A DNA stretch of 64,000 bases from a virus (taxonomy: Duplodnaviria > Heunggongvirae > Uroviricota > Caudoviricetes): the IMG/VR virus record IMGVR_UViG_3300021140_000485. One strand, written 5' to 3'. Below, piece after piece: positions 19,627-63,460 of this stretch (the stretch's first letter is position 1; the number at the start of each line of letters is the position of its first letter). A program made the position numbers and the translations under genes. Below the pieces are notes generated by a model. That model worked only from the letters and a program-made list of their open reading frames with translations. It was not told where the DNA came from and searched no databases.

Positions 19627-19914
19627 ATGGCCGACAGGAATTTTTATATGAGAAGAGTATTGACCAAAATTGTAAAAAATATGGTTAGTAAAAATCCTGC
19701 ATTCAAAAATATTCGTTCAGTTGAAATACAATTCTTACTTAAATCTCCTGTTAGAAGCGCAATGTGTGATTGGGTTTATGGTCTTACTATCAAGACATAT
19801 AACGATGATGTTAACCAACCTCAAATAATTTCTCAAATAAAAGAAAGAATTGATTCTGTTACATCACAACTAACAAAAGACACTTTCTGTCTCACCGACT
19901 ATTACTTCGAGTAG
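19627..19914 (+). CDS. Hypothetical protein.
   Basis: 95-aa ORF. Confidence 0.4.
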   Translation: MADRNFYMRRVLTKIVKNMVSKNPAFKNIRSVEIQFLLKSPVRSAMCDWVYGLTIKTYNDDVNQPQIISQIKERIDSVTSQLTKDTFCLTDYYFE

Positions 19915-21029: not shown

Positions 21030-22164
21030 TGTCAGGAGATAATACAGGTTTATTAATCTTGTTCTCTAATCTTTCTTTGAACTCATACAAGAAGTTAGAT
21101 GAATTAGTATAACATCTATCCTCAATCAAGAAACACAAATTAGGATATGGGTTTTCTCTACCTTCATTAATCATTTGTTCAACAACCTCAAGAGCTTCTT
21201 TGTTCCTTTGTCTTTTCTCATAAAAGAATGCCAAATACATCAAGTGTTCATTTCTTGTTGGAGAGAACGGTCCTGCAGATTTGTAGTGTTCTTCCGCTTT
21301 ATCATACTCCCCTCTAAAGTTATATGCTTCACCCAAAAGTATAAATGTTAGATATGACATCTCATCTAATCTTGCAGGTTTACCAGTATTAAACCAGTTG
21401 TGATTAAGTGCTAAAAACTTATTAAAGTAGAAAATCGCTCTACGAGCATATTCGTCTGAGTGGTCCTTTCCAAATGCAAGTTCATCAGGATTTCCATAAC
21501 AATCAGCATAACTCTTACCAACATACCAAAGATGATACATATCCTCATTGATGGTGTTTCCAACAACTTTGTCAATTTCTAATTCCAAAGCATCTCTCAA
21601 AAACTTTCTTGGTGCAAACCAAGTCTGACCATCATTTGTGATTAAGTGTCTAAATCCAAAAGGTAGAACCATTCTTTGGAAATTTTCACCGACTTCAGGT
21701 AAGTGAATTGTTTCGTGTCTTTTATCGTGTTGAAAAAACCAAGGTCTTTTTGCATTCCATAACCAAGTTCTGTAATACTTTGTACCCATTGCCTGAGCTG
21801 TAATGTTGAATGAATCAATTGAAGTGTCTTCCAATACAGTCCAATCAAAGTCCTCATCAACAATTAGTTGTTCATCAGCATCCATTCTCAGAATCCAATC
21901 ACATCCGTGGTCAGCCTTCAAACATTCCTGTAAGGTATGGTCTCTATTCCATCCTGGATATTGCCATTCAATCTCATACAGGAATCCAGGAATCCCTTTT
22001 TCTTTGAAGTAGTTTCTTATAATGTCTTGTGTTCCGTCAGTAGACCCATTGTCCTGTATAACCCAATAATCAATATATTGGAAACAGGAGTCTAACATTC
22101 TTGTGATAGTTCTGGCCTCATTAGCCACCATCGCGTTTAAGCAAATTTTGGTTTTTTTATTCAT
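21007..22164 (-). CDS. Glycosyltransferase (GT-A-like N-terminal domain) with a C-terminal helical-repeat region.
   Basis: 'YWVIQDNGSTDGT' and 'MDADE'. The C-terminus has TPR-like helices. Confidence 0.65.
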   Translation of the reverse strand: MNKKTKICLNAMVANEARTITRMLDSCFQYIDYWVIQDNGSTDGTQDIIRNYFKEKGIPGFLYEIEWQYPGWNRDHTLQECLKADHGCDWILRMDADEQLIVDEDFDWTVLEDTSIDSFNITAQAMGTKYYRTWLWNAKRPWFFQHDKRHETIHLPEVGENFQRMVLPFGFRHLITNDGQTWFAPRKFLRDALELEIDKVVGNTINEDMYHLWYVGKSYADCYGNPDELAFGKDHSDEYARRAIFYFNKFLALNHNWFNTGKPARLDEMSYLTFILLGEAYNFRGEYDKAEEHYKSAGPFSPTRNEHLMYLAFFYEKRQRNKEALEVVEQMINEGRENPYPNLCFLIEDRCYTNSSNFLYEFKERLENKINKPVLSPDSVVFDFL

Positions 22165-23404
22165 AAATGTAATTCATTACTTGTTCTTGTTTATAGTATT
22201 TTTTGATTGGGACACTGTTTTGGAACTTTTGTGAGTGTTGTGTAATCTCATCCCAATTCCAATCAAAATAACCCATTTCTTCAATTCTGTCGTGTATTCT
22301 TTTATCATAGAAGTCCCTGATTAATCTGGCCCTACGATTAATATCTGTTGCATTATTATCAACTGTTGAGTTGTTATTGTTGTATTGTAGATATAACACC
22401 TTCTTTACGTGAATCATCTTGGTTTCTAAAAATGTACGAATAAGAATCTCCAAGTCATCAGCAACAGGTGTTAATTTATTGTGTCCTGAAATATTATGAT
22501 AAACACTTCTCTCCCACATTCTAGCGTGGTTTGGCATTGTGATATTGAATCTAATTGTGAGTGGGTTTACATCAGGGTACCAATGAGCAAGTCTATCAAC
22601 ACCGTCAACATTTACCCAACTGTGTCCAGCATACCCAAAGTCAAAATAGTTATCGTGACGAGCATACCAATTACCAGTCCAATCGTGGTCATAAAACTTA
22701 GGTTCACCGTCCTCGTATATCTCTGAACAATCAGTATAAAGAAATCCCGCGTCAGGGTATTTTAATATTGCATCATTAGCGGTTTCAAGACAAGTTGTAA
22801 CCAAACAATCATCGTGGTCCAATTCAATCAACCAATCACCATCACCTAACATAGCTGCACGATGTTTAGCCAAACCAATATTACCACCCGATAATGGATA
22901 AATCCTGTGAGGTTTTACCCGATAGTCTTTCTCCGCAATTTCAGTTATCATCTCCCAAGTTTCAGGGTCAGGCGAATCATCAACCACAACCCATTCCCAA
23001 TTATCAAAGGTTTGGTTGTTTAAAGACTCATAAGTCCTATAAATCCTTTCTCCTGTTTTGTAGGTTGGTGTGAAAATTGTAAATCTTGGTCTAAAATATT
23101 CACAGTTTCTAAACACAGTCTGACAAACAATTACGTTCGCCAAAATTGCTTCATCAATCGGTTCATCATAGTGAATGTGAAATCTTTTCAAATGATAGTG
23201 TGGGATGTTTACTTCTTCACCAAAACTTATAATTAAGTCAGGTTTATATTTTGTATAATCACCAACGACATCGTTTGTATATGGTAGATTATAAACAACA
23301 ACATCATCAAACAGATGTTCTTCCCAGTATATTTGTGAGATTAAGGTTGTTTCACCTTCCGTACCTAATCCATACACTATTGCTGACGGTTTTTTTGTCT
23401 TCAT
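22157..23404 (-). CDS. Family-2 glycosyltransferase with an N-terminal extension.
   Basis: 'FTIFTPTYKTGERI', 'WVVVDDSPD' and 'IELDHDD' (DxD). Confidence 0.75.
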   Translation of the reverse strand: MKTKKPSAIVYGLGTEGETTLISQIYWEEHLFDDVVVYNLPYTNDVVGDYTKYKPDLIISFGEEVNIPHYHLKRFHIHYDEPIDEAILANVIVCQTVFRNCEYFRPRFTIFTPTYKTGERIYRTYESLNNQTFDNWEWVVVDDSPDPETWEMITEIAEKDYRVKPHRIYPLSGGNIGLAKHRAAMLGDGDWLIELDHDDCLVTTCLETANDAILKYPDAGFLYTDCSEIYEDGEPKFYDHDWTGNWYARHDNYFDFGYAGHSWVNVDGVDRLAHWYPDVNPLTIRFNITMPNHARMWERSVYHNISGHNKLTPVADDLEILIRTFLETKMIHVKKVLYLQYNNNNSTVDNNATDINRRARLIRDFYDKRIHDRIEEMGYFDWNWDEITQHSQKFQNSVPIKKYYKQEQVMNYIYE

Positions 23405-26219: not shown

Positions 26220-27170
26220 TTCTGGCACTTAGGTTGAGAATACACCTTCGATTAAGAATCTTTAGGGACATTATTGTTTCTTCCCGTTTCCACTACCTTT
26301 TGAGTAGTAATTCTTAGTGACGGTTCCTTAGGGGTACCATTCCTTGAGTCGTGCGGTTACTCTCTTTGTACTTGTTACTCTCCGAGGTTGCCACCCCAGT
26401 GAATCCTTGCGGGATTAGAGAACTTTCTCAAGAATCATTTGGGTCTTGGGAACCCATAATGGCAATGAACATCTCATTACTATGTAGTCACCTTTCGCCT
26501 ACGACTGACAGACACTTTTCCTTCGTCTTTTAGTATTTGCATACTTCAAAATGCAAAGTTGTTGGTCTGTGGATGGTGAAAGTAGCGGTCTGCCAACCAG
26601 ACAAGCCATCTTTTGAACGACTCGATACTGAACTACTCTCTGAGATATCCCTACCTCGATACTTCAAGAAATCTTCATAATTAAAATCTTGGTAGATTCT
26701 AACTAAGGTTACCAACAGCACCACCTGTACGATAACATGACTTTCGTCTTTAAGACACCTCTGATATTGAATCCCGTGATTGTAAAGTTGGATGACTTTA
26801 CTTCTCACAACAATTCTACGAGTTATTCTTATTGTTCTTCCGAACTCAACTCAACGACCCACATCGCTGAGTCATCATTCCATTTTGTCTACAGTGTCAC
26901 CCTCGACTACTCAGGAACAATGATATCCCGCTTGCCTACTCGAGCTCTAAGAACCGAAGTTCAAAGAACCGCAGTCTCCGTTAACCTTCGGAGACCACTT
27001 TATCCCACTTTCGTGGTTTATTTATTGACCATAGGCGGCCAATTATCTTATTTACTAACCTGTTGGTTAGAAGGATAATCAAATATGTAAAAGAACGTGT
27101 TTCGTTAATTGTTTCACAAAGTTAAGAAGATTATTTTAATCTGTCAAGCACTTTGTAAAAGTTTTTTTTG
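26220..27170 (-). ncRNA. Candidate structured noncoding RNA or 3' trailer co-transcribed with tRNA-Met. About 950 nt, elevated GC, no ORF longer than 113 aa in any frame.
   Basis: Bounded by the tRNA (5' side on the minus strand) and a strong terminator (3' side). The frame-track ORFs here are short and non-protein-like. Identity unknown. Confidence 0.3.
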
Positions 27171-27244
27171 TTGCGGGAGTCGGACTCGAACCGACGGCCT
27201 CAAGGTTATGAGCCTTGCGAGCTACCAACTGCTACCACCCCGCG
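27171..27244 (-). tRNA. tRNA-Met (anticodon CAU), initiator-like.
   Basis: Reverse complement reads 'CGCGGGGTGGTAGCAGTTGGTAGCTCGCAAGGCTCATAACCTTGAGGCCGTCGGTTCGAGTCCGACTCCCGCAA'. It shows a cloverleaf, a C1·A72 mismatch, a GTCGG/CCGAC T-stem and TTCGAGT T-loop, the anticodon loop CTCATAA, and no encoded CCA. Confidence 0.85.
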
Positions 27245-32359: not shown

Positions 32360-33529
32360 TTATAATCCTAAAATTTCAAGGGTTTTATTCACTCTACTTT
32401 GTGGTGACAAGTTTCTTTCATAATACTCCCTTGCGTTTTTAGAAATATAACTTAAAAATTCGTGGTCATCAACAACCTCTTTGAATCTTTCCTCAATCAT
32501 TTTTACGTGGTGAGGTCCTGATAGTCGGTCACTGGCAACTCCATTGTGTCTTGGCATATCATCAGGATATGGAACAGAAATGTAATGTACGTTTGGAATT
32601 AACTTTTCGTGCATTTCAACTTGGAACTCAAATCTAATCAATGGCATTCCAATCGCCATACATTCAATGTCTCTATAACAAAGTTCTCCCACTCCTGCCA
32701 TAGACAACGACACTTGGTAATCTATCATATCATTGAAGTATGCTTCAGGGGTTGTTGGTGTTTCGGGACAATACAACAACTCATCCGAGAAATGTTTTAA
32801 AGCGGGTCTTTGTGAAACATTACCTCTGAAATACATTAAAGGTACTTTGTTTTGAACGTGTTTTCTTTTGTGATAAAACTGTTCCAAGTCAATCAAACCA
32901 GATGGGAAATAAATCCAAGGTGAGTATTTGTCATAGTTATTATCAACGTGGTGTTTAATCTTGTAATCAATGAACTGTGAAATCAAAACCTTCTTACATA
33001 AAGGATTGTGTTTCTCATTCATAGTTGCGTAACCCAAGTCATCAGAGACACTCATAATCCAAAACTCACCAGAGTCAGCATCTTCAATAACATATTCACA
33101 CTCCAACAATAAGAATTCTTTGGCAAGACCTTTTTTTAATTTAATTTCTTGTCTGTCAAAGTGAGCATTCTCAAAATGCCTGTTCTCAATAACCTCATAT
33201 CGTTCTGATAGTTCTTGGGTTAACTCATCCCAAAATAAATTGTAATTACGATAGTATCGAGTTTTGTCATTTGTTGGGTTATGGATTATCAGTCTACGAT
33301 GAGGTTTATCACCATTTCCACTTTTATTCTGAACCTCACGGTTGAGATACCATAGAGCTTTATTCAAATCTTGAAGTTCCTTGTCAGTCCCCTTTTTACC
33401 TGCCCTTGAAATATATTTTACAGTATTCCCAAGATTAAATCCTAAGTCCCAAGCTTCAATAACTTTTATTGCTTCATATGGATTATTCTTTCCCCCATAA
33501 TGTTGAGGGTGATTTACTTGTTCACTCAT
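32360..33529 (-). CDS. DUF3310-domain protein with a C-terminal domain of roughly 300 aa and unknown (possibly transferase-like) function.
   Basis: 'HPQHYGGKNNPYEAIKVIEAW.....GNTVKYISRAGKK....AL...WYL' fits the DUF3310 pattern. Confidence 0.65.
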   Translation of the reverse strand: MSEQVNHPQHYGGKNNPYEAIKVIEAWDLGFNLGNTVKYISRAGKKGTDKELQDLNKALWYLNREVQNKSGNGDKPHRRLIIHNPTNDKTRYYRNYNLFWDELTQELSERYEVIENRHFENAHFDRQEIKLKKGLAKEFLLLECEYVIEDADSGEFWIMSVSDDLGYATMNEKHNPLCKKVLISQFIDYKIKHHVDNNYDKYSPWIYFPSGLIDLEQFYHKRKHVQNKVPLMYFRGNVSQRPALKHFSDELLYCPETPTTPEAYFNDMIDYQVSLSMAGVGELCYRDIECMAIGMPLIRFEFQVEMHEKLIPNVHYISVPYPDDMPRHNGVASDRLSGPHHVKMIEERFKEVVDDHEFLSYISKNAREYYERNLSPQSRVNKTLEILGL

Positions 33530-33532
33530 ATA

Positions 33533-34696
33533 TTAATCGTTATAAATTGAACCACTTTTATTTTCAGACTCTTCGAATTGATGTTGTTCCATAATATCTT
33601 TAAGTGGTGATTTTTGAGTATCAACTTTAGTATTCATATTATGAATAATCTTATCAAGAGTTAATGCAAAGTCCAGAGTTTCGGATATGATACCAACAAT
33701 TTTATATGGGTCACCATTTGATGCCGGTCTACGGTCTTCAACATAACCCTTCCATTCTTTTGATGTAGACAATGGAACTCTGATTGATGCACCTCGGTCA
33801 GCAACCCCCCAACTAAACTTGTCAATAGATTGGGTTTCGTGTTTACCAGTCAAACGAAGATTGTTATCAGAACCGTAATTGTTAATGTGTAACTGATGAC
33901 GTGAATCAAAGGCGTTAAAGATGTTTTTGAAGTATTCATCACCACCTTCATTTCTCATCTTGTCATTTGAGAAGTTACAGTGTAATCCTGAACCATTCCA
34001 ATCACCCATCACAGGTTTAGGGTGGAATTCAATCTTAAAACCATAGTCCTCAGACATTTGTTGTAAAATGTATCTCGACATCCACAAATCATCACCGGCC
34101 TTTAATTTACCTTTGGAGAATACCTGGTACTCCCACTGACCCAATAAGACCTCGGCGTTTGTACCTGTAATTTCAATACCTGCCAAGATACAATTTTCCA
34201 TATGAGTATCCACAAATTTTCTACCGTTAACTTGTCCGTTACCTACACCACAATAGTATTTTCCTTGTGGTTCAGGATATCCATTCTCAGGGAAACCCAA
34301 AGGTCTACCATCTTTCATAATGGTATACTCTTGTTCAAAACCAAACCAAAGGTCCTCTTCTTCTTCCCCAACAAGACTTCTTGTATTTGATACGTGTGGA
34401 GTCCCATCGGGATTCATAACCTCACACAACACCAAGAAAGACCATAGACCACCTTCGTTAAGTGAGTTGTGATAAACTCTAACAGGTTTCAAAATACAAT
34501 CAGAAAAATGTCCGTCAGCTTGTTGTGTTGATGAACCATCAAAACTCCACTCAGGGCAATCCTTCAGTGTTATAATATCCCCATATGGAATATTCTGAAG
34601 ACCAGTCTCTTCTTTTTCAATCACCTTAACCTTACTTCTAAGATTAGGTTCTGGCTGATACCCATCCAACCACACATATTCTAATTTAACTTTCAT
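33533..34696 (-). CDS. Glutamine synthetase type-II-like protein.
   Basis: 'LEYVWLDG', 'FDGSSTQQADG..SD..L.PV', 'LVLCEV', 'GVADRGASIRVP' and 'NGDPY' are colinear with the GSII beta-grasp and catalytic domains. Confidence 0.75.
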   Translation of the reverse strand: MKVKLEYVWLDGYQPEPNLRSKVKVIEKEETGLQNIPYGDIITLKDCPEWSFDGSSTQQADGHFSDCILKPVRVYHNSLNEGGLWSFLVLCEVMNPDGTPHVSNTRSLVGEEEEDLWFGFEQEYTIMKDGRPLGFPENGYPEPQGKYYCGVGNGQVNGRKFVDTHMENCILAGIEITGTNAEVLLGQWEYQVFSKGKLKAGDDLWMSRYILQQMSEDYGFKIEFHPKPVMGDWNGSGLHCNFSNDKMRNEGGDEYFKNIFNAFDSRHQLHINNYGSDNNLRLTGKHETQSIDKFSWGVADRGASIRVPLSTSKEWKGYVEDRRPASNGDPYKIVGIISETLDFALTLDKIIHNMNTKVDTQKSPLKDIMEQHQFEESENKSGSIYND

Positions 34697-38363: not shown

Positions 38364-38389
38364 GTTGTAATATGTTAGTAAAATTAAAA

Positions 38390-38414
38390 GGGTGAAGAAA
38401 TTCACCCTTTTTTT
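38390..38414 (+). terminator. Intrinsic terminator (GGGTGAA-gaaa-TTCACCC followed by a T-run).
   Basis: Perfect 7-bp stem. Confidence 0.7.
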
Positions 38415-38424
38415 ATATTTATAA

Positions 38425-39447
38425 GTGATGACAGGGAAATTACAAAGATTAATCGACGATGTTAATAATGGTAAATTTGATATTATCAAAGATTTTTTTG
38501 GTGATATGGAAACTTTTTTGGACTATCTTGGTAAAAAAGGTTTGATACACGAATTAGACCTTATTAACAACGAAGAAGAATTCGAATATGAAGTTAACAA
38601 AATAGCCCTCGCAATTAAAGAACATAATCCCGAAAAATTTAGAGAATATGTTTTATCTTCATTAAGTGATGTTACTTATGAAAATGGTGAATACTATGTG
38701 ACTTTGAATGATAAAAGTAGACTCGCGTATCTTTTTTGTGATGATAGAAGAAATGGTATGTCTCAATCAACAATATCAGAGATACTAGATGGTGAATGGG
38801 ATTTTGATTTTTGGGATACTACCGATAATGTTTATAGGGATGTTATTCAAGAACTAAATAAGGATAATCTTACTTATTTATCAAAAAAAATAAGTAACGA
38901 ATTATCTGACGTTAAGGTAGAACCTGAAACAGAATTGTTAGAAGAAATTGCCGAGGAACAAGGTCATCCTGAATATGTAACCTTAACCCCCGAGTTGATT
39001 CACGACAGAATATTCAATGATGAGGATTCAACAGAAAGTATTTTGAATGAAACCGAAAACATTAAATCAGATTTACACTCATTACATAACAGAGCATATG
39101 CAAATGCTTATGAAGATGAGGTGTATAGTGGTATAATGGATGAACTTGAAACATTTTTTGATATGCGCCATTCTGATTGGATAACAGTTCCAAGTAGTGT
39201 AAACCCAAACAAATCTTATACCTATTTCAAAGTTAAAATAAATAATTTTGATTCAGAGATTTCCGATTACCTTAATAACGCGAAGAATCATAATGAACCA
39301 TTAAGTAATTATGGTGACTATCTTAGTATTTTGAGTGAAAATATTAGTTATGGTAGTGCCAATTGTTTGGTATATTACACGCCTGATTATGCGGATTGGC
39401 CAAAAACAAAAGAAAATATTAACGAACTTTTTGGTGACTATTTTTAA
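38425..39447 (+). CDS. Acidic hypothetical protein.
   Basis: 340-aa ORF. Confidence 0.55.
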
Positions 39448-42400
39448 ATAATCCCCTTTAGTTTAGCTTTATCCAAAACTTTTTTAGCTCTCTCTTCAAG
39501 AGATGTTATTCTAACCTCTTGTTCTTTTAACGCTTCAATGTTAACGGCAATCATTTCTTTATAATTCATTGTTAACACTTTACCTTCAGTATAAATAACT
39601 TCAGGAACATAAGGCAAAACTTCTTGAGCAATAAATCCAATAGCTTTTTTGTCATTAGAACTATATTCTTTACCTCTCCATTTAAATGTGACACCTCTAA
39701 TACTTAATATCTTATTTAGAGCATCACCGATAGGTTTAACATCTTTTTTCAGTCTTTCATCTGAAGGACCTGTTGGTCCTTGTGGACCTTGAGCTCCTTG
39801 TGCTCCGAATGTTGAACTAGCACCTCCTTGAGCCCCTGGTGCTCCTTGTGCCCCTGTTGGACCTGGTGTTGCAGAACCTTGAGCACCTGTTGGTCCTTTA
39901 AGACCTGTAGGTCCTTGTGCACCGACGGCTCCCTCAAAACCTTGTGAACCTTGAGCTCCTTGAGCCCCTGTTGCACCTTGTGCACCTTGTGGTCCATTAG
40001 GAGACGTTGGCCCTTGAGCCCCTTGAGCTCCTTGAGCTCCAATAGCACCTGAATTTCCTTGAGCGCCTTGAGCACCTTGAGCGCCGGCTGTACCTGAACC
40101 TTGAGCACCTTGAGGTCCTGTTGGTCCTGTTGCACCTTGAGGTCCTGTTGGTCCTGTTGCACCTTGAGCACCTTGAAATCCTTGACCCCCTGTAGGTCCT
40201 ACGGCTCCTTGTGAACCTTGAGCCCCTTGAGGTCCTGTTGGTCCTGTTGCACCTTGAGCTCCTTGAGCTCCAACAGGTCCTTGAGCACCTGTGGCTCCTT
40301 GGAATCCCTGCTGACCATTAGGTCCTATTCCACCTACGTCCCCTTGAGCACCTTGCGCTCCTTGGAATCCTTGTCCTCCTGTTGCTCCTTGAGACCCTTG
40401 AGCACCTGTTCCTCCTTGAGCTCCCTGAAAACCTTGTCCTCCTTGCGCCCCTTGTGGACCTTGAGCTCCTGTGGCACCTTGAGCACCTTGAGCTCCCTGC
40501 CCACCTTGCGCTCCTTGTGGACCTATTGCTCCTTGGAAACCTTGTGCTCCTTGAAAACCTTGTCCTCCTTGAGCCCCTTGAGTTCCTGTTGCTCCTTGAG
40601 CACCTTGAGCCCCTTGTGCTCCCTGTCCTCCTGTTGCGCCTTGAGCTCCTTGTGCTCCTTGTCCTCCTGTTGCTCCTTGGACTCCTTGTCCACCTGTTGC
40701 TCCTTGCGCACCTTGGTTACCAACAGCACCTTGAGCTCCTTGGAAACCTTGAGCCCCCTGACCTCCTTGTGCACCTTGTACTCCAACAGCACCTTGAGCC
40801 CCTTGTGCTCCTTGGAAACCTTGTCCTCCTTGAGCACCTTGAGTACCTGATATACCTACAGAACCTTGAGAACCTTGAGCCCCTTGTCCTCCTTGAGCAC
40901 CTTGAGTTCCTGATACACCTTGAGCTCCTTGAGCCCCTTGGAAACCTTGACCTCCTTGAGCACCTTGAGTTCCTGTTGTACCTTGAGCCCCTTGAGCTCC
41001 TTGAAAACCTTGTCCTCCTTGAGCTCCTTGGGTTCCTGTTGCTCCTTGAGCTCCTTGAGCTCCTTGAGCTCCTTGGAAACCTTGAGCACCTTGGGTTCCT
41101 GTTGCACCTTGAGCCCCTTGAGCTCCTTGGAAACCTTGACCTCCTTGAGCCCCTTGGGTTCCTGTCGCTCCTTGTGCACCTTGAGCTCCTTGTGCTCCCT
41201 GTCCACCCTGAGCACCCTGAGTTGCTGTCGCTCCTTGCGCTCCTTGAGCTCCTTGAGCTCCTTGACCACCTTGAGCACCTTGGTTACCAACTGCCCCTTG
41301 TGAACCTTGAGCCCCTTGTGCTCCTTGTCCACCTTGGGCTCCCTGATTACCTTTAGCCCCTTGAGCTCCTTGCGCCCCTTGGGCTCCTTGACCACCTTGA
41401 GCACCTTGGTTACCAACTGCCCCTTGTGAACCTTGAGCCCCTTGCGCTCCTTGTCCACCTTGCGCTCCTTGTCCACCTTGAGCACCTTGAGCCCCTTGTG
41501 CTCCTTGAGCACCTTGTCCTCCTTGAGCACCTTGTGTTCCCGTTGCACCTTGAGCACCTTGAGCTCCTTGGAAACCTTGTCCACCTTGAGCACCCTGTGT
41601 TCCTGTTGCTCCTTGAGCCCCTTGTGCTCCTTGGGCTCCTTGTCCACCTTGAGCACCCTGTGTTCCTGTTGCACCTTGAGCACCTTGTGCTCCTTGGGCT
41701 CCTTGTCCACCTTGGGCACCTTGGTTACCCTTTCCACCTTGAGCACCTTGTGCTCCTTGGGCCCCTTGTCCACCTTGAGCACCCTGATTACCTGTCGCAC
41801 CCTGAGCCCCTTGAGCTCCTTGAGCTCCCTGTCCACCTTGTGCACCTTGGTTACCAACCGCTCCTTGTGAACCTTGAGCTCCTTGAGCTCCTTGTCCTCC
41901 TTGGGCGCCTTGGTTACCAACCGCTCCTTGTGAACCTTGAGCTCCTTGAGCACCTTGTCCACCTTGAGCACCTTGATTACCTTTTCCACCTTGAGCGCCT
42001 TGAGCTCCTTGAGCTCCTTGTCCTCCTTGGGCACCTTGGTTACCAACCGCTCCTTGTGAACCTTGAGCTCCTTGAGCTCCTTGTCCACCTTGAGCGCCTT
42101 GATTACCTTTTCCACCTTGGGCGCCTTGAGCACCTTGAGCACCTTGTCCTCCTTGAGCCCCTTGGTTACCTGTTGCCCCTTGAGCTCCTTGTGCGCCTTG
42201 TGAACCTTGCCCTCCTGTTGCTCCTTGGGAACCTTGAGCTCCTTGGGCTCCTTGACTACCAACCGCTCCTTGAGCACCTTGGTTACCAGTATTACCCTGA
42301 GCACCTTGTCCTCCTTGGGCACCTTGATTACCTTGAGCGCCTTGTGGTCCAGCATTTACATTACCTTTCCATCCGGTAGAGTCTATTATTAATCCGTAAT

Positions 42401-42602
42401 TGTTTGTAACTGTATTAGCACTTAAATTTGTATTTTGTACTTGGAATATAGGTGCTGTCTTGGCAATTTTTAGATATGTTGTTGTTTGATTTACAACATA
42501 ATTCAATGTAGAACTAGAATATACCAAATCACTTCGAGTATTCCCCGAATCATAAAATTGTATTGTTATACTTGCAGGTACTATTATTATATTCTCAGCC
42601 AC
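39444..42602 (-). CDS. Collagen-like (Gly-X-Gln triplet) fibre protein with a C-terminal intramolecular-chaperone / peptidase S74 domain. Candidate tail fibre.
   Basis: About 290 uninterrupted G-x-Q triplets. The C-terminus '[12 protein letters not shown]....FKWR......GFIAQEV' matches the SDxRLK auto-cleaving chaperone signature. The N-terminal roughly 90 aa is non-repetitive. Confidence 0.85.
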
Positions 42603-45600
42603 GTAATTTTTCTTCTAATTCAGTTAATGATGTTTTAAGGACATCCATTCTTTTTTGATTTTCTTTTACAAAAGATACTCCAAGAGTAACAAGTAGTTCA
42701 TACTGTAAAGATTTATAACCAAACTTATCTTCCCAAACAATTTCAGGAAAATATTTTTCAACTTGTTGGGCGATAAAACCTATACTTCGTTTTTTAAGTA
42801 AATACTTTTCATTGTCTTTATACAATGAAAGTTGTGGTATATTTTCAACCCAATCAAAAGATACACCATTCATATTAACAACATCAATAGCTCTATCAAA
42901 TTTCTTGATGTTTTCTTTCAATCTTCTATCTGAAGGTGGCCCTTGAGGTCCTTGAGCACCTTGTGCTCCTTGTGGTCCCGTTTTACCAGCATTACCTTGA
43001 GCACCTTGAGCACCTTGTGGTCCTGTAACACTAGCACCTTGAGCTCCTTGAGAACCAGTACCTCCTGCAGGTCCTGTTGCACCTTGAGCTCCTTGGACTC
43101 CTTGTGGACCTGTCCCACCTGTAACAGCTCCTTGAGCGCCTTGTGCTCCTTGTGCCCCTGCAGCTCCTTTTCCTCCTTGAGCACCTTGTGCTCCTGTGGA
43201 ACCCTGAGTTCCGGCCTTTCCTGTTGCACCTGTAGCACCTTTTGGTCCCGATGGTCCTTGAGCTCCTGTTGGTCCTTGAGGTCCTCTTGACCCTTGTACA
43301 CCTTGTCCTCCTGTCTGACCTGCAGCACCTTGAGCCCCCTGTGTCGCACCCGCAGGTCCTTTTGTTCCTCCCGCACCTTGAGCACCTGTAGGACCTGGAC
43401 CTCCTGTAGGACCTGTCGCTCCTTGAGACCCTTGAGAACCTTGAGCTCCAGCGGGTCCTTGAGCACCTTGTGTAACACTCGGATTCCCTTGTGGTCCTTG
43501 TGAACCTGTTGCTCCTGTGGCACCCTGAGCTCCTTGGGTACCTCCTTGAGCACCTGTGGCTCCTTGTGGGCCTTGAGGTCCTTTTGCTCCTTGAGCTCCT
43601 TGAGGACCTCCTTGAGCCCCTATCGGACCTTGGGCTCCTTGAGCTCCTGTAGCACCTGTTGCACCTTGAGTACCTCCTGTAGCACCTTGGAATCCCTGAG
43701 GTCCTGTAGCACCTGTAGCACCCTGAGCCCCTTGAGGTCCTCCTTGTGCACCAACAGGTCCTTGAGCACCTGTAGCACCTGTAGCACCTGGAGCCCCTTG
43801 CGGAGTACCTTGTGGTCCTTGAGCACCTTGAGCTCCTGTTGGTCCTGTAGAGCCTGTTGCTCCTTGGACCGCTCCTTGAGCACCTTGATTACCAACAGCA
43901 CCTGTTTGTCCAGTCGCACCTTGTGCCCCTTGAGCACCTTGAGGTCCTCCTGGATTTCCCTGAGCACCTTGGGCTCCTTGTCCACCTTGAGCACCCTGTG
44001 CACCTGTTGGTCCTCCCTGTGCACCTGTTGGTCCTTGAGCACCTTGGGCTCCTTGAGCACCTTGTCCTCCTTGTACACCTCCTTGAGAACCTGTTGGTCC
44101 TTGAGCTCCTGTCGCACCTGTGGCACCTGTCGCTCCTTGCGTTCCTCCTTGAGCACCTGTTGGTCCTTGAGCCCCTGTTGCACCTGTGGCTCCTGTAGCC
44201 CCTTGAGGTCCTCCTTGTGCACCAACAGGTCCTTGAGCTCCTGTAGCTCCTGTGGCTCCCGTCGCACCCTGAACTCCACCTTGAGCACCTGTTGGTCCTT
44301 GAGCTCCTGTAGCTCCTGTGGCCCCTGTTGCACCCTGAACTCCACCTTGAGCACCTGTAGGTCCTTGTGCACCTGTTGTTCCATTAGCACCCGTTGCCCC
44401 CTGAACTCCACCTTGAGCACCTGTTGGCCCTTGTGCACCTGTTGTTCCATTAGCACCTTGAGCCCCTTGAGGTCCTCCTTGTGCACCTGTTGGTCCTTGG
44501 GCACCTGTTGTACCTTGAGCACCTTGAGCTCCTTGAGAAGCTCCTTGTGCTCCTTGTGAACCAACGGCTCCTTGAGCACCTTGTGCTCCCTGATTTCCCT
44601 GAACTCCACCTTGTGCTCCTGTAGGTCCTTGGGCACCTGTTGTACCTTGAGCACCTTGAGCCCCTTGAGAAGCCCCTTGAGCTCCTTGTGAACCAACGGC
44701 TCCTTGTGCACCCTGTGCTCCCTGATTTCCCTGAACTCCACCTTGTGCTCCTGTAGGTCCTTGTGCACCTGTTGTACCAGCGGCACCTGTTGCCCCCTGA
44801 ACTCCACCTTGAGCACCTGTAGGTCCTTGTGCTCCTGTGGCACCTGTCGCACCTGTTGCCCCTTGGACACCTCCTTGAGCTCCCGTACTACCTTGAGCTC
44901 CTTGAGCACCTGTCGTACCCTGAGCACCCTGAGAAGCACCTTGTGCACCTTGTGAACCAACGGCTCCTTGAGCACCTTGTGCTCCCTGATTTCCTTGGAC
45001 ACCACCTTGAGCTCCCGTAGGTCCTTGGGCACCTGTCGTACCTTGAGCACCTTGAGCACCTTGTGATGCACCTTGAGCTCCTTGTGAACCAACGGCTCCT
45101 TGAGCACCTTGTGCTCCCTGATTTCCTTGGACACCACCTTGAGCACCTGTTGTCCCTTGAGCACCTTGAGCTCCTGTCGCCCCTGTCGCTCCTTGCGTTC
45201 CTCCTTGAGCGCCCGTACTACCTTGGGCACCTTGGGCACCTGTGGCTCCTGTCGCTCCTTGTGTTCCTCCTTGAGCACCTGTACTACCTTGAGCACCTTG
45301 TGCCCCTGTCGTACCTTGAGCACCTTGTGAACCTCCTTGAGCACCTTGTGAACCAACGGCTCCCTGAGCACCTTGGGCTCCTTGTCCTCCTTGTGTCCCA
45401 CCTTGAGCACCTGTACTACCTTGAGCACCTTGAGCACCTGTCGTACCTTGAGCACCTTGTGAACCTCCTTGAGCTCCTTGTGAACCAACGGCTCCTTGAG
45501 CACCTTGTGCTCCCTGATTTCCTTGGACACCACCTTGAGCACCTGCAATACCTTGAGCACCTTGTGCCCCTGTTGTTCCTTGCGCCCCTTGAGACGCTCC

Positions 45601-46017
45601 TTGAGCACCTTGTGCTCCTACTGCTCCTTGAGCACCAGTACTACCTTGTGCTCCTTGAGCTCCTGTACTACCACCCCCACCTTGAGCTCCCGTTGTTCCT
45701 TGTGCCCCAACATTTCCTTGAGCTCCTTGAGCACCTTTAATAGTTGTTTGTGGTCCAATCCATACACCGGCATTATTAATCATATTTTGACCACCAACCC
45801 ATAAACCTGATGGTGAACTTGATATTGTAACACCTGTAGTTGTTATGTCATTATTACTGAAAACTACTAATGATGGACTTGTTGTTGCAGAAAATTTGAC
45901 ATCACCCGGTGCAACCATATTAATTTGGATACTATCCGCAGCAGACGCCCCCTCGTATACTATATGAGGCGATGAGTTTCCTGTAGTTCCACTTGGATAT
46001 ATTATTACGTCTGCCAT
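42595..46017 (-). CDS. Collagen-like fibre protein paralogue 2 with a C-terminal S74 chaperone domain.
   Basis: Gly-X-Y repeats with periodic one-residue insertions ([12 protein letters not shown]). The C-terminus is '[12 protein letters not shown]...VSFDW...GFIAQQV'. Confidence 0.85.
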
Positions 46018-46020
46018 ATA

Positions 46021-49000
46021 TTAATTTCTTTCAACCTTTTCTTCTAAATTTGTTAATAGAGAATCCAAGTCATCAATAAATACTTGTTGCTCTTTTATGG
46101 CTTCTACTAAATAAGCGTTAAGTGAGGTATAGTTTAAACTATAATAACCGCCACCCCTTAATTCAATTATATCTGGTATTACACTTCTAACTTCTTGTGC
46201 AATAAAACCAAACGAGTGTAGTTTACCATCTCGTTTCATTGCCTCATAGTTGGGGTCTAATTCGTTCCAATCAAATTCAACAGGATTTAATTGTAAAACA
46301 CTTTCTAACGAGTTTTCAATAGTAGTAATTTCTTGTTTTAAACTAATATCTGAAGGACAAGTATTAGGAACACCAATAATTAAACAACCTCCTGTGTCTA
46401 GGTCGTAATAAAGTGATGATAAGTCATACCATACGGGAGCAGGTAAAGGAGTTACACAACTAAGATTTGCACAGTCAGTCGCATTTTCAAACACAGATGT
46501 GTTGTTAGTCCAAGTAGTAATATCGTCTGGCGAGTATATGTCCCCATAAAATCCGCGGTTTAATGAACAAGCACTACCCGGGTCACCCGCATAATAACCT
46601 GAATATTGAAAACAAGATGCTGATGGTGGTCCTGCCGGTCCTGGCGCTCCAGGAGCACCCTGAGCACCTTGTGGTCCCGTATCACCTTGAGCTCCCGTAG
46701 CACCTGTTAGTCCGTCGGCACCTGCAGGTCCTGGTGCTCCTTGAGCACCTTGTGTTAACCCTTGTGCACCTTGTGGTCCTTGAGCGCCTTGTGCACCTTG
46801 TGGTCCTTTTGCACCTGTAGGTCCTGGTGCTCCTTGTGCACCTAATGGACCGGCACCTCTAAGTTCCCCTATTCCCCCTTGAGCCCCCTGAGCACCTGAT
46901 GGTACAATTGGTGTAGGTCCTTGAGCACCTTGTGCACCTTGTCCTCCACCTGCTCCTTGAGCTCCTTGGAATCCAAGAGGTCCTTGAGCACCTTGAGTAG
47001 CACCTGTTGGTCCTTGAGCCCCTGTAGCACCTTGTGGTCCAGGAAGTCCAGCAATTCCTTGTGTTCCAACATTTCCTTGAGCACCTGTAGGTCCGGGAGA
47101 ACCTTGAGCACCTGTTGCACCGATATTTCCAATAGGACCAGGACCTGTTCCTTGAGCTCCTTGTGGTCCTTGAACACCAGGAAATCCTGTGTTTCCTTGT
47201 GCACCTGTGGCACCTGTTGCACCTGTTGGTCCAACATCTCCTTGTGAACCTTGAAATCCAAAAGTACCGGTACCACCACCAGCACCTGTATTTCCAACAT
47301 CACCTTGTGCACCTGAAAAACCTGTGGCACCTTGAGCTCCTTGAGAACCTGTAGGCCCAACCGGACCTGTTGCTCCACCCGCTCCTTGAGAACCTTGAGC
47401 TCCTGTAGCACCAGTATTTCCAACATTACCTTGTGAACCTTGAGCTCCTTGAGCCCCTTGTGGTCCTCCTCCTCCCACAGGACCCGCAAAACCTGGAAAT
47501 CCTGTAGAACCTTGAGAACCTTGAGCTCCTTGAGCCCCTTGTGGTCCAACGGCCCCTTGAGAACCCTGAGCTCCTTGAGCTCCTTGAGCACCTATTGTAC
47601 CTGAATTACCTGTTGGCCCAAAGACTCCTACCGTTCCTTGAGCTCCTTGTGCTCCTTGTGGTCCTCCTGAACCTTGTGGACCTCGAGCCCCTTGTGAACC
47701 CTGAGCACCTTGTGCTCCTTGTGCACCCACATTACCTGTAGGTCCAACGGCTCCTTGTGAACCCTGAGCACCTTGTGCTCCTTGTGCACCTTGGTTACCT
47801 GTAGGTCCAACGGCTCCTTGTGAACCTGTATTACCTTGAGCTCCTTGGTTACCGGTATTTCCTTGGGCTCCTGTATGTCCTGTTGAACCTTGTGCTCCTT
47901 GAGCTCCTGTTGCACCTCCATTACCTGTTGGTCCAACCGCTCCTTGGAAACCTGTGTTACCTTGTGCTCCTTGATTACCTGTGTTTCCTTGTGCACCTGT
48001 ATGTCCTGTTGAGCCCTGAGCACCTTGTGCACCTGTTGCCCCACCATTACCTGTAGGCCCTACATTACCTTGTGAACCTTGAGCCCCTTGTGCCCCTTGA
48101 GCCCCTTGAGCCCCTTGTGGTCCTACATTACCTTGTGAACCTTGTGCTCCTTGTGCTCCTTGTGGTCCTGTTGAACCTGTTGGTCCGACATTACCCTGAG
48201 CTCCCTGATTACCTTGAGCACCTGTTGGCCCCACGTTTCCTTGTGCACCTGTGTGTCCTGTTGAACCCTGAGCACCTTGTGCTCCTGTAGCTCCCGCATT
48301 ACCTGTTGGTCCTACGTTACCCTGAGAACCTTGATTTCCTTGTGCACCTGTATTACCAGTATTACCTTGAGCACCTGTATGTCCTGTTGAACCCTGAGCG
48401 CCTTGTGCTCCTGTCGCACCTCCGTTACCTGTTGGTCCGACATTACCCTGAGCGCCCTGATTACCTTGTGAACCTTGTGACCCTGTTGCACCTGTTGGTC
48501 CGACATTACCTTGTGCTCCCTGATTACCTTGTGAACCTTGTGACCCTGTCGCTCCTGTTGGTCCGACATTACCCTGAGCACCTTGATTACCTTGAGAACC
48601 TTGAGCTCCCACATTACCTTGTGCACCAGGATGTCCTGTTGAACCCTGAGCTCCTTGAGCACCTGTCGCACCTCCGTTACCTGTTGGTCCGACATTACCC
48701 TGAGCACCTTGATTACCTTGAGAACCTTGAGCTCCCACATTACCTTGTGCGCCAGGATGTCCTGTTGAACCCTGAGCTCCTTGTGCACCTGTCGCTCCTC
48801 CGTTACCTGTTGGTCCGACATTACCCTGAGCGCCCTGATTACCCTGAGCACCTGTTGGTCCCACGTTTCCTTGTGCACCAGGATGTCCTTGAGAACCTTG
48901 AGCATTTGCTGAACCTTGAGCTCCTTGATTACCCTTTCCACCTTGTGAACCTTGTGAACCCTGAGCACCCGTATTTCCAATGGCTCCTTGAGCTCCTTGA

Positions 49001-49284
49001 TTACCTTGGAATCCTGTTATATTTGTTCCAGGTCCTAACCAAGCACCTGTACCATTTAATACTTGAATTCCTCCAATAGTTAGATTATTAATGATATTAA
49101 TATCATCATACGCTTGGATACCACCCGATGACATTAATAATGTAGAACCCCACTTTATAGAAGTACCAGCACCATAAGGTCTGACCTCTAACCTCAAAGT
49201 TCCCGTATTTTCAAAATCAATATAGGGAATCCTTCCGGGATTCGGGACTAAATTACCAGGTACAATTGTTATATTTTTTGCCAT
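46021..49284 (-). CDS. Collagen-like fibre protein paralogue 3 with a Cys-rich linker and a C-terminal S74 chaperone domain.
   Basis: G-N-x / G-A-Q triplets. The C-terminus is '[13 protein letters not shown]...VEFDWNE...FGFIAQEV'. Confidence 0.85.
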
Positions 49285-49345: not shown

Positions 49346-49627
49346 TTAAATAATATGTTTTTTGATTATATCAACAGCTTCAGTTAATTCATTATAGTCC
49401 CTATCAGGAGTATACATATGAGGAATGGTTTTTTCTTTAGTTTCTTCAATAATGAGTAATGCTGGTACAAAATCATTTTCTGTTAATTGTGAAAAGATAT
49501 CATACTCTTCTTCATACTCATCAATGTCTCTATCAACGAAGTCAATGTTCTCTTTGACTAACATCTCTTTGAAGTCAGTACAATGAGGACAGCCTTTCAT
49601 TGTATAAACAATAATTGTTTTACTCAT
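49346..49627 (-). CDS. Glutaredoxin/NrdH-like small redoxin (CPHC).
   Basis: 'VYTMKGCPHCTDFKEML'. 93 aa. Confidence 0.65.
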   Translation of the reverse strand: MSKTIIVYTMKGCPHCTDFKEMLVKENIDFVDRDIDEYEEEYDIFSQLTENDFVPALLIIEETKEKTIPHMYTPDRDYNELTEAVDIIKKHII

Positions 49628-49935
49628 TAGTTCATTAGTATTTCAGTTAATTCAGGTGTCGGCACAACTCCTGTTCTTGTCATATCAACTACACCATTTT
49701 TGAAGAGTTTTAAAGTCGGTACCGCTCTGATTCCCATCTCTGTTCTTACGAAGTCGTGGTCTGTGTCAATATCGTATTTGTATACAGGTATTTTTGTTTC
49801 ATTCTCAGATGTGATTTTCTCAAGTGATGATAACAATACTTTACAAGGCCCACACCAAGTTGCGTATAAATCTAAGAGGAAACTTTCCTTGTTATTTATT
49901 TTTTCTTTCAATTGTTCTGTCGTTAACTGTTCCAT
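49627..49935 (-). CDS. trx: Thioredoxin.
   Basis: 'LLDLYATWCGPCKVL'. Confidence 0.85.
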   Translation of the reverse strand: MEQLTTEQLKEKINNKESFLLDLYATWCGPCKVLLSSLEKITSENETKIPVYKYDIDTDHDFVRTEMGIRAVPTLKLFKNGVVDMTRTGVVPTPELTEILMN

Positions 49936-50611: not shown

Positions 50612-51946
50612 TTATCTTCTTCCTTCTAACTCTGTGAAGTCATATAGACCTGGACCAACCTCGAATGCCACATCAGTGATTTCCTTAGGTAATACTATAT
50701 TATTTGAACCCATAATATTCATAATCATAATCTCAGGTAAAGTGGCAACACACGCAGGTATTGACTTAACCTCAGGACAATTTAGAACTGCAAAATATGC
50801 TAATTTTTTAAGTTCACATATCGCATCAGGAACACTAGTTATACACCCATCAAATGTAAGCCTATCTAAGTTTGTGAATCTTGAAATTGTATCAGGAATT
50901 CTAAATGTAATTGGTGTTCTAGTGTTTCTAGTTGAGATATTAATTTTGTGTATGTCGTCAGGTAATGAATCAAATAACTCATCCAAACCATACAACCCAA
51001 TAAACTTACCTACAGAACCAGACTCAAAGTTATCAATAACCAATTCTTTACCTTGGTGTGTTAAACCTTTAGCAAATTCAGGTTTGAAGTAATCTTTAAG
51101 TTCTGCCATAGGACCGTTCAAATACTCAATTAAATTAACACTACGGTCATCCTTATCCATAAACTGATTTGATTGGAAATGGAATTGGTATCTTTCTTTT
51201 GGTAATCCTGTTGTTGGAGATACATTAGTATCATTTGGATTATAGATAACATACAAAGGTCCGTCTTTAATGTATCTATCGAAGTAACTTAAACCAGGTG
51301 CTGAAGTACACCAACGAGTCTCTTGTTGATTACCACCGTAAAAACAAGCGGCTTCTTTACCTCTTTCTCCTTTATCAGATATCTTAATAACTCTCCAATT
51401 TTTACCCTCAAATCCAGATTCAGCACCAGGGTGTACTGGCGCAGCCTTTCTTTCGGCTTTAGTTGTTGTCGCCATAGTTAAGTCAAAGTCCTTAACAGCA
51501 TCGTATAAAGCTTCAGGTGTTAGTTTATTGATATCCCTCATTTCAAGAGGTAACTTACCTTTAAACCTTTTAAACTTGGTCAAATCCTCAGTCACTTTGT
51601 AAAGGTCTTCCATAAACCTTTCTCTCATAACTTTAACTTCTCTCTCGTGACCTTGTTCACCTCTTGGGATTTCAGTCTTAACGTTCATATAACTCTTAAT
51701 TAACCAAGGAGTGTATTCACCAACTTTAACTCGAGATAATTCCTCTTTTGATGCTCTTTCCAAATCAACATCATTTAAACGAGATGTTGGGTCGGCTTGG
51801 ATTAATTCGAAGAACTCTTGTTTGCTCAATGGAGCCTTTAAAGGTTTACCTTCTTTATCTTTTTTAGGTAATACAAACTTATCCATCAAAACTTCAAGTC
51901 TTGATTGTTCCAATATGATTTTCTTAAGTACGTTTGCGAACTTCAT
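50612..51946 (-). CDS. Hypothetical protein with a C-terminal leucine-rich-repeat-like region.
   Basis: The C-terminal roughly 120 aa has an 'L..L.L..C..I..IP..I..L' periodicity. The middle contains 'ETRWCTSAPGLSYFDRY'. Confidence 0.55.
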   Translation of the reverse strand: MKFANVLKKIILEQSRLEVLMDKFVLPKKDKEGKPLKAPLSKQEFFELIQADPTSRLNDVDLERASKEELSRVKVGEYTPWLIKSYMNVKTEIPRGEQGHEREVKVMRERFMEDLYKVTEDLTKFKRFKGKLPLEMRDINKLTPEALYDAVKDFDLTMATTTKAERKAAPVHPGAESGFEGKNWRVIKISDKGERGKEAACFYGGNQQETRWCTSAPGLSYFDRYIKDGPLYVIYNPNDTNVSPTTGLPKERYQFHFQSNQFMDKDDRSVNLIEYLNGPMAELKDYFKPEFAKGLTHQGKELVIDNFESGSVGKFIGLYGLDELFDSLPDDIHKINISTRNTRTPITFRIPDTISRFTNLDRLTFDGCITSVPDAICELKKLAYFAVLNCPEVKSIPACVATLPEIMIMNIMGSNNIVLPKEITDVAFEVGPGLYDFTELEGRR

Positions 51947-62650: not shown

Positions 62651-63460
62651 TTATAGATAATCAAAAAGTTCACTAGACTCATTACGCAACTTACGTAAAG
62701 CCTTCTCTTTAATTTGTCTAACACGTTCCTTAGTTAATTGGAAGTCATTACCAATATCTTCAAGTGTACGGGTATTTCCTGACAATCCGTAGTAATCTTC
62801 AATGATAATTTTTTCACGGTCATCTAAAACTTCTAAGATACCTTTCAACTTGTCTTTAAGGATGTCTTTTGTATGAAATCCGGAGTCAGGTGCCAAAGCA
62901 TCAGGATTACTCAAAACATCCAACAAAGTATCACCATCTTCATTGAGGGGATTATCATAATTAACCGTATAAGGAAGGGTTACAAACTTTTCGGGTAACT
63001 CAACCCCACTCTTCTCAAGTTCTTTTTTAGCCTTTTGAAGTTCTTGAACAACATTCACAGGAAGACGAATAGTTCTCGCATTCTCGTTAAGTGATTGTAG
63101 GATTGATTGTCTTACCCACCAAACCGCATATGAAATAAACCTTAGCTGTTTGGACCAATCGAAATTTTCAACAGCTTTAAGTAATCCAAGATTACCTTCA
63201 GCAATTAGGTCACAAAGTTCTAATCCTTGATTTTGGTATTGTTTGGCAACAGTAATTACAAATCGGAGATTACCTGTTAACAATTCTTGTTCAATTTGAC
63301 GTTTCTCTGTTAACGTCAAATCATCCGATAACATTCTCTGAGCGAGTTGTTTTTCTCTATCAGGTGTCATAACTTTTATCTTACGAATATCTTTAAGATA
63401 AGTTGCAATCTCTTCTTGATTAATAGGGATACTTAAATTTTTGTCTTTCATATGTCTCAC
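62651..63460 (-). CDS. Sigma-70 family RNA polymerase sigma factor.
   Basis: Region 2 'FISYAVWWVRQSI' and 'LIAEGNLGLLKAVENFD'. Region 4 HTH 'RTLEDIGNDFQLTKERVRQIKEKALRKLR'. Confidence 0.85.
   Translation of the reverse strand: MRHMKDKNLSIPINQEEIATYLKDIRKIKVMTPDREKQLAQRMLSDDLTLTEKRQIEQELLTGNLRFVITVAKQYQNQGLELCDLIAEGNLGLLKAVENFDWSKQLRFISYAVWWVRQSILQSLNENARTIRLPVNVVQELQKAKKELEKSGVELPEKFVTLPYTVNYDNPLNEDGDTLLDVLSNPDALAPDSGFHTKDILKDKLKGILEVLDDREKIIIEDYYGLSGNTRTLEDIGNDFQLTKERVRQIKEKALRKLRNESSELFDYL

Follow-up and report, generated by a model that had tools for sequence, protein, structure and literature searches.

One fibre or three? Length-matched trios of collagen-like chains with C-terminal Peptidase_S74 domains in uncultured freshwater phages

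What do three long collagen-like genes, arranged in tandem in a phage genome, build together, and why are there three of them? We address this question in a stretch of 64,000 nucleotides (nt) of Caudoviricetes DNA, IMG/VR record IMGVR_UViG_3300021140_000485, the whole of which we call the window. Three paralogous genes lie on its minus strand at 39444-49284, exactly where an initial annotation of the DNA had placed them, and we name them P1, P2 and P3 in the order of their transcription. Each chain has an N-terminal domain, a Gly-X-Y stalk of 797-934 residues and a Peptidase_S74 (S74) domain at its end. Our results indicate that the trio very probably encodes collagen fibres whose assembly is assisted by S74. 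The full explanation, in which the three products co-assemble as chains of very long, collagen-like fibres on the virion of an uncultured freshwater phage, appears to us evenly balanced.

S74-ended collagen chains

The Pfam family Collagen (PF01391) matches all three chains with E values from 1e-72 to 2e-99, the latter for P1, and the bit scores of 325.6, 239.5 and 294.7 for P1, P2 and P3 compare with a Pfam cut-off of 27.2. Peptidase_S74 (PF13884) is found at the extreme C-terminus of each chain (E 1e-11 to 1e-15), with bit scores of 49.0, 45.2 and 57.9 in the same order against a gathering cut-off of 22, which bears out the auto-cleaving domain proposed for every chain in the initial annotation. 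In our alignments the Ser and the Lys five positions after it in the motif S-D-x-x-L-K are invariant across paralogues and orthologues, and the Ser-Lys dyad is intact in P1, P2 and P3 (residue numbers in Table 1).

A profile search of the PDB aligns the S74 domains with those of S16 gp37 (6f45), the tail fibre 8jov and MyRF (7dc3), with 6f45 matching the P3 domain at E 8e-5. Matches in PHROG fall almost only into tail-fibre, tail-spike and baseplate families and are confined to the last ~100 profile positions. Together with annotated cyanophage tail fibres that combine collagen and S74, these matches make a fibre role the best reading of the sequences. The catalytic Ser and Lys are also five residues apart in endoNF (S911/K916) and MyRF (S587/K592), and MyRF cleaves between P586 and S587 in a reaction that needs trimerisation (PMC8326128). 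Pro precedes the catalytic Ser in the S74 domains of the trio as well, and by analogy P1 is predicted to be cleaved between Pro977 and Ser978.

The stalks show the predominance of Gln at position Y that had been noted before, with Gln in 49% (P1), 50% (P2) and 77% (P3) of the triplets. Such triplets had been described as atypical for collagen. This holds for animal collagen but not for prokaryotic and viral collagen-like proteins, in which Gln and Thr are usual at Y (PMC8968730). The triplets had also been described as free of Pro, which is incorrect: we count 54, 46 and 23 Pro residues in P1, P2 and P3, and these are concentrated in the C-terminal fifth of the stalk (per fifth, from N- to C-terminus: 7, 7, 7, 11 and 22 in P1; 0, 4, 9, 15 and 18 in P2; 1, 0, 0, 3 and 19 in P3). 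A gradient rising toward the S74 domain would fit nucleation at the C-terminus and zipper-like folding from C to N.

The stalks are, moreover, almost uncharged, with 7-9 Asp, Glu, Lys or Arg residues per 797-934, and none of the three contains a KGE or KGD motif. In a recent survey, salt-bridge triplets such as KGE and KGD occurred anomalously often in viral collagens, and salt bridges were proposed as the general aid to collagen folding (PMC11923368); the near-uncharged stalks of the trio are an exception to this proposal.

All three stalks follow a period of about seven triplets. Those of P1 and P3 are built of 63-nt (seven-triplet) units, the 21-residue unit of P3 consisting of 12 residues followed by GxQ-GAx-GNQ. 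In the P2 stalk a block of exactly seven triplets closed by one extra residue (GGxQ or GASQ, a G3G interruption) occurs 30 times, and the periodic one-residue insertions previously reported for the middle paralogue are thus real. In P3, a single Gly-to-Ala break (GAT-ATQ) at residue 460 (window 41224-41226) leaves two runs of exactly 125 triplets.

Stalk lengths and the assembly of the chains

We compared the trio in about 25 related metagenomic loci, on contigs of up to 326 kb. All stalk lengths come from short-read assemblies and are given below as triplet-equivalents, which count interruptions as well as triplets, in the order P1/P2/P3. The three genes are kept and are one-to-one orthologous across the loci, in the same order except in L135 and L123, where they are rearranged. 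The terminal domains are 37-54% identical between orthologues compared with 22-39% between paralogues. P1 has one-to-one orthologues in many IMG/VR loci (49-52% identity in L022), P2 orthologues in L022 and L023 are 37-43% identical, and each orthologous group has its own strongly conserved and distinct S74 sequence.

Stalks range from 98 to ~345 triplets across the loci and are near-equal among the three genes of a single genome. The matched trios are 98/98/98, 118/118/117, 128/128/127, 153/154/152, 157/157/156, 161/161/160, 167/167/166, 174/174/177, 195/195/194, 214/216/215, 222/221/219, 269/269/270, 289/290/289 and 304/302/304, and L006, a near-identical strain to the window, has 299/299/~300. 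Matching holds in each of at least 12 distinct length classes, and independent assemblies of the same type agree in their lengths. Pairwise correlations between the three lengths reach r 0.98-0.999 and none of 100000 permutations was as tight, both figures ignoring the relatedness between genomes.

Near-identical strains, with flanks 96-100% and terminal domains 99-100% identical, have stalks that differ by multiples of seven triplets, and the matched lengths among genomes step by non-multiples of seven (153, 157, 161, 167, 174). In genomes where globular domains interrupt P1, its collagen segments add up to a total that still fits the partner chain (142 vs 140 and 222 vs 221). For stalks of 84-260 nm, equality to ~1 triplet (0.9 nm) has no easy explanation if the chains are not physically paired lengthwise, and on this ground we think it probable that the three chains physically co-assemble. 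The initial annotation had seen in the locus a modular fibre array. A fibre role for S74-ended collagen chains is indeed the best reading, but three independent fibres miss the length matching within genomes.

More distant trios (L180 9995-20298, L181 5548-15847 and L123 6443-19333) have the same N-domain and S74 types, with Lys-, Glu- and Asp-rich stalks that carry ~50 interruptions per chain. The triplet-equivalent totals of distant charged trios still match, at 358/357 and 317/314. On two IMG/VR contigs of 24 and 79 kb (L162 and L164) a trio of collagen and S74 chains begins with a short and different N-terminus ('KNGLIVG...') and measures 128/128/127, so that length matching may extend to trios outside the main clade.

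Equal lengths might also arise without any function, through shared descent, occasional homogenisation of the repeat arrays or the behaviour of assemblers in repeats. The genomes are related to each other, every length is taken from a short-read assembly, and the paralogous arrays of L180 and L181 share a higher-order pattern of interruptions, as after recent homogenisation. In the lineage of the window, on the other hand, the composition and period of each stalk are paralogue-specific and conserved between genomes: by composition, 28/36 stalks are closest to the same paralogue of a different genome, and 2/36 to another paralogue of their own genome. The 12 or more length classes are each matched, and errors of assembly would break matches, not create them, so that we consider an origin without function very improbable. 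Gene conversion was considered separately as a cause of the equal lengths and was rejected for this lineage, since each stalk keeps its own composition.

The insertions and the Cys-rich knob, which precedes the S74 domain of P1, are also distributed in a regular manner. About one extra residue per ~7 triplets recurs in the P2 orthologues of ~15 genomes, and nearly every genome has one chain with periodic insertions, two that are almost uninterrupted and one that carries a Cys-rich knob. In L135 the N-domain types are permuted relative to the C-domain types, yet one insertion chain and one knob chain are present. The P2 insertions keep in phase with the GGx triplets of P3 to within one triplet in 9/11 genomes, while the absolute phase spans all seven values (binomial p = 0.010, permutation p = 0.022, uncorrected for relatedness). 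In the window, this agreement holds from both ends.

A heterotrimer P1:P2:P3, to which we assign close to an even chance, would account for the presence of exactly three coupled genes, a single distal domain and two chains that would otherwise be bare rods after cleavage. In such a fibre, the three chains would be translated from one coupled operon, and their C-terminal S74 domains would trimerise and fix the register of the chains. The triple helix would then nucleate at the Pro-enriched C-terminal triplets and zip up in the direction of the N-terminus, each S74 domain would cleave itself off before its Ser (after the Pro of Pro-Ser-Asp-x-x-Leu-Lys), and the orphan N-domains would anchor the fibre to the particle. 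P1 would give the sole distal Cys-rich knob of the heterotrimer, and P2 a looped-out extra residue every ~7 triplets, which may act as periodic hinges or bends. Because one bulge per seven triplets corresponds to about one superhelical turn (7/2 helix), the bulges would all share one face, which could make the fibre curl or give it hinges. The stalk length, ~84 to 260 nm, would be set jointly by all three genes. We propose this complete picture (a single heterotrimeric collagen fibre with a mixed, self-removing S74 module, one knob, bulges on one face and lock-step tuning of length) tentatively, as its chance falls somewhat short of even.

Several observations weigh against a mixed fibre on the virion. 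The trio of the window is itself mismatched, at 264/299/286, as are those of L008 (278/292), L064/L170 (131/160/145), L078 (157/170), L174 (142/141/134) and L103 (316-338/345/274); overall ~1/5 of the loci depart from equality, by amounts close to multiples of seven triplets. Neither the length nor the phase statistics take account of relatedness between genomes. In-register interruptions were sought in L180 and L181, where they are offset by ~40-50 residues between chains. In a heterotrimer, up to ~40 unpaired single-residue bulges in one chain would be destabilising, as would the interruptions close to the C-terminal ends, which do not align between the three chains. Finally, neither the annotated ORFs (open reading frames) of the window nor the ~10 kb beyond each end yielded a capsid or tail gene, and the location of the trio on the virion is therefore inferred.

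The longest exact internal DNA repeat in the trio is 79 nt. Collapse of the assembly is thus not forced, and the mismatched trios may be real variants. The lengths of 264/299/286 in the window may represent such a variant or the mis-assembly of a mixture of strains.

The same observations bear on a different arrangement, in which the trio forms three separate homotrimeric fibres, each through its own S74 domain, with distinct S74 and N-domains that prevent mixing and dock at three sites. Equal length would then be selected by side-by-side action, for example in an even layer of hairs or in a span from collar to baseplate. All solved S74/ICA domains are homotrimeric (PMC8326128), which counts directly against a mixed trimer, and the distinct, conserved S74 of each orthologous group and the existence of mismatched trios, that of the window included, agree with homotrimers. 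Interruptions would also align automatically in a homotrimer, which suits P2 and the offset, heavily interrupted chains of L180 and L181. However, this arrangement offers no mechanical reason for equality to ~1 triplet over a three-fold range of lengths, and it leaves the P2 and P3 fibres without any distal domain after cleavage. Nor does it explain why each genome has exactly one knob chain and one insertion chain, even after domain shuffling. We therefore regard three homotrimers as a genuine possibility but a doubtful one, and continue to favour co-assembly of the three chains.

Terminal domains, operon and genomic neighbourhood

The coordinates of the genes and of their domains are collected in Table 1. 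The N-terminal domains, which had been called mutually similar, do form one family, but the likeness is weak: they are 26-31% identical to each other, with M1, I7, P9, W82 and G84 invariant and the consensus 'MAKNIxIVPSN...VGGxQVLNGTxNWxGPTTxIxGAQG'. Among 1.84 billion representative sequences the N-domain has 15 matches at E<=1e-3, all at protein N-termini, and these run into collagen wherever the sequence continues. It has no match in Pfam, PHROG, the PDB (profile search), INPHARED (tblastn) or GTDB genomes, and in the first four of these no homologue among known fibre or baseplate adaptors. A search of IMG/VR with the P2 N-domain gave nothing useful.

Table 1 Features of the collagen and S74 gene trio, with positions in the window, strand and description (aa, amino acids).
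Feature	Position	Strand	Description
Gene P1	46021..49284	-	1087 aa, ATG start; N-domain, collagen stalk, Cys-rich knob, S74; ORF and Pfam
P1 N-terminal domain	49015..49284	-	aa 1-90; 'MAKNIxIVP...NWxGP' family; presumed virion anchor
P1 collagen stalk	46624..49014	-	aa 91-887; 261 triplets; 63/126/378-nt tandem repeats; Asn-, Thr- and Pro-rich
P1 Cys-rich distal domain	46354..46623	-	aa 888-977; six Cys at residues 891-976
P1 Peptidase_S74 domain	46024..46353	-	aa 978-1087; Ser978, Lys983; Pfam E 7.5e-13
Gene P2	42595..46017	-	1140 aa, ATG start; N-domain, periodically interrupted collagen stalk, S74; ORF and Pfam
P2 N-terminal domain	45736..46017	-	aa 1-94; 'MA(D/N)(V/I)IIYP' subtype of the N-domain family
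P2 collagen stalk	42934..45735	-	aa 95-1028; 298 triplets; 22-aa period; 66/132/396-nt tandem repeats
P2 Peptidase_S74 domain	42598..42933	-	aa 1029-1140; Ser1029, Lys1034; directly abuts stalk (...GPQGPP/SDRRLK)
Gene P3	39444..42602	-	1052 aa, GTG start; N-domain, collagen stalk, S74; ORF and Pfam
P3 N-terminal domain	42351..42602	-	aa 1-84; 'VAENIIIxP...DFYD' subtype of the N-domain family
P3 collagen stalk	39765..42350	-	aa 85-946; 283 triplets; 63/126/189-nt tandem repeats
P3 Peptidase_S74 domain	39447..39764	-	aa 947-1052; Ser947, Lys952 (...GPTGP/SDERLK); Pfam E 1.2e-15

A Cys-rich segment had been reported in front of the chaperone domain of one paralogue, and six Cys are found there in the gene at 49284..46021, which is P1. 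This knob is an orphan: PHROG has no match for it, and word-index searches for homologues of the knob, and likewise of the N-domain, returned near-identical fragments only. A Cys-rich segment occupies the same position in the P1 orthologues of L022, L023, L041, L058 and others. The knob would stay at the tip of the fibre after S74 cleavage and is a candidate binding knob. AlphaFold2 monomer models were unusable, with a predicted local distance difference test score (pLDDT) of 44 for the N-domain and 37 for the knob with S74.

The gene junctions are as tight as had been reported. P1 and P2 are separated by a 3-nt gap (TAA-TAT-ATG) and P2 and P3 overlap by 8 nt (GTGGCTGA), the GTG start of P3 lying inside the end of P2; the beginning of P3, 'VAENIIIxP', is kept in its orthologues. 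P1, P2 and P3 are one tightly coupled operon. The GC content of the trio is 48-56% vs 32%, while GC at third codon positions (GC3) is just 14-15%. The raised GC is thus an effect of amino-acid composition, and horizontal transfer is ruled out as its source. Downstream, the stop codon of P3 is overlapped by 4 nt by a gene for a 340-aa protein, and a strong bidirectional terminator-like hairpin with an 11-bp stem lies at window 38386-38411, between this gene and a convergent gene for an acidic protein of 583 aa.

As for the source of the DNA, proteins identical to those of the locus occur in many freshwater metagenomes, for example from Lake Mendota, with contigs of up to 93-107 kb (exact-protein look-up), and a megablast of the array and its flank against the INPHARED phages gave no match. 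A gene just upstream of the array (window 50612-51946) encodes a 444-aa protein that is 55-64% identical in most of 62 IMG/VR loci, and relatives that share this neighbour lie on contigs of up to 309-326 kb. Because related contigs reach ~320 kb, the clade probably consists of jumbo phages. A tRNA-Met gene (27170-27244) and a sigma-70-type factor (62651-63460) are also present in the window, which fits a large and transcriptionally autonomous phage.

The neighbourhood further contains genes for glutaredoxin, thioredoxin, DnaJ, two DNA methyltransferases, an RNA ligase, a glutamine-synthetase-like protein, three family-2 glycosyltransferases and UDP-galactopyranose mutase. This non-structural company, in particular thioredoxin, glutaredoxin, the methyltransferases, DnaJ, the sigma factor, RNA ligase and the glycosyltransferases, would suit proteins that are not virion fibres and act inside infected cells or at the cell surface, or else decorate the capsid as does gp12 of phage SPP1, a collagen-like capsid binder (PMC7602432). 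That the N-domain has no known tail-attachment homologue points in the same direction. Against this, the S74 domains match almost only families of tail fibres, tail spikes and baseplates, always at the C-termini of these, and the 444-aa neighbour shows weak similarity (27-30%, over ~40-55% of its length) to a protein of the Pseudomonas jumbo phage PA5oct annotated as 'structural protein'. Unrelated neighbours are, furthermore, not unusual for fibre genes: in pelagimyophages, T4-like phages of SAR11 hosts, tail-fibre genes sit amid glycosyltransferases and unrelated genes in a hypervariable host-recognition cluster (PMC7029224). We judge a role other than that of a virion fibre to be very improbable.

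The genes with a likely role in glycan metabolism lie at window 749-23404 and comprise a hexapeptide acyltransferase (749-1390), the three family-2 glycosyltransferases (11737-12456, 21007-22164 and 22157-23404) and the UDP-galactopyranose mutase (19902-21029), which is 58% identical to glf of a Streptococcus suis phage. The related locus L018 has a cytidylyltransferase-like gene call at the position that corresponds to this set. Such genes might alter the surface of the host or attach sugars to the Thr-rich stalks. The glutaredoxin and thioredoxin genes (49346-49935) are immediately upstream of P1, and this adjacency to P1 recurs in the distant relatives L021 and L022 and, with one intervening reverse-strand gene, in L023; a redox role in the folding of the Cys-rich knob is speculative. 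The glutamine-synthetase-like gene (33533-34696) adjoins a gene for a DUF3310 protein (32360-33529), the DUF3310 part of which matches PHROG families labelled nucleotide kinase, and in L021 and L022 a guanidinoacetate-N-methyltransferase-like gene stands between the two. This group could be a module of nucleotide or DNA modification.

Gene calls of the trio differ between database records. We compared them for window 39444-49284, for L006 and L007, and for L022 231-10255. One JGI record calls the trio as genes of 1192, 1140 and 1094 aa. Although the DNA of L006 and L007 is identical here, another record calls short ORFs in an alternative frame (218, 244, 240, 662 and 211 aa) and small S74 fragments. 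Most S74 homologues in the databases are calls of 85-209 aa on long contigs, as in the case of an 85-aa call where the true ORF has 1064 aa. Since gene callers often miss the collagen frame, database counts of such fibres are underestimates.

Comparison with known systems

Knowledge of collagen-like tail proteins goes back to 1998. The combination of collagen and S74 is an established design of phage and virus fibres, and the architecture of the trio, taken alone, is therefore ordinary. The tail fibre of the Synechococcus phage S-CAM9 (YP_009322462, 1830 aa) likewise has collagen followed by a C-terminal S74 domain (SDRRLK...GFIAQE) that is 36% identical to that of the window. It is, however, encoded by a single gene, with 59 Lys-, Glu- and Pro-rich triplets within a mostly non-collagen protein, a large globular domain between collagen and S74 and an unrelated N-terminus, and it shows neither a trio nor length matching.

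The chaperone domains of endoNF, S16 gp37 and MyRF resemble those of the trio in Pfam family, Ser-Lys spacing, C-terminal position and helix-rich tail and, in MyRF, in the Pro before the Ser. They fold triple beta-helices or beta-structured fibres as homotrimers, whereas the S74 domain of the trio abuts the collagen helix directly in P2 and P3 and may act in a mixed trimer. Fusions of collagen to an endosialidase chaperone in the fibres of polinton-like viruses and in tail proteins of Escherichia coli O157 prophages have been read as trimeric attachment fibres (PMC12220804), but they have one or two short collagen domains and differ in their N-terminal modules, of which the adenovirus fibre domain is an example, and no trio is reported. 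SPP1 gp12, from a Bacillus phage, is also a trimeric collagen-like protein of a phage surface; compared here by its description in the review PMC7602432, where S74 is not mentioned, it is short, encoded by a single gene and binds capsid hexamers. Collagen and S74 fibres occur, in addition, in catalogues of fibres of extracellular contractile injection systems (PMC12923769).

In our literature searches we did not find a conserved trio with lock-step variation in length, paralogue-specific periodic G3G insertions, the orphan N-domain, or a nearly charge-free stalk of 800-930 residues fused directly to a chaperone domain. Should the heterotrimer prove true, no virus would have been described with such a fibre before. 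The trio is a natural experiment in how collagen chains are selected, registered and measured in length without hydroxyproline, without Hsp47 and almost without charge. It points to flexible fibres of 0.1-0.25 µm on abundant uncultured freshwater phages and may hold a design rule for long recombinant heterotrimeric collagens with a removable registration tag.

Further parallels to the proposed fibre come from animal proteins. C1q consists of three homologous chains from three tandem genes, each with an N-terminal region, a collagen stalk of equal length and a C-terminal trimerising domain, and a one-residue insertion in only some of the chains bends its stalk. The likeness of the trio to C1q is drawn from the sequences: equal collagen lengths of this kind are seen in most relatives and in L006, while the window and five other loci are mismatched. 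The trio differs from C1q in that it has no gC1q domain (no C1q match in Pfam), its C-terminal domain would be removed, its insertions are periodic and its stalks are 3 to 10 times longer. In the C-propeptide of procollagen, a C-terminal registration domain nucleates a zipper from C to N beside the most stable triplets and is then removed. The S74 domains of the trio would follow the same course with an unrelated fold, by self-cleavage instead of a separate proteinase and on stalks that have no hydroxyproline.

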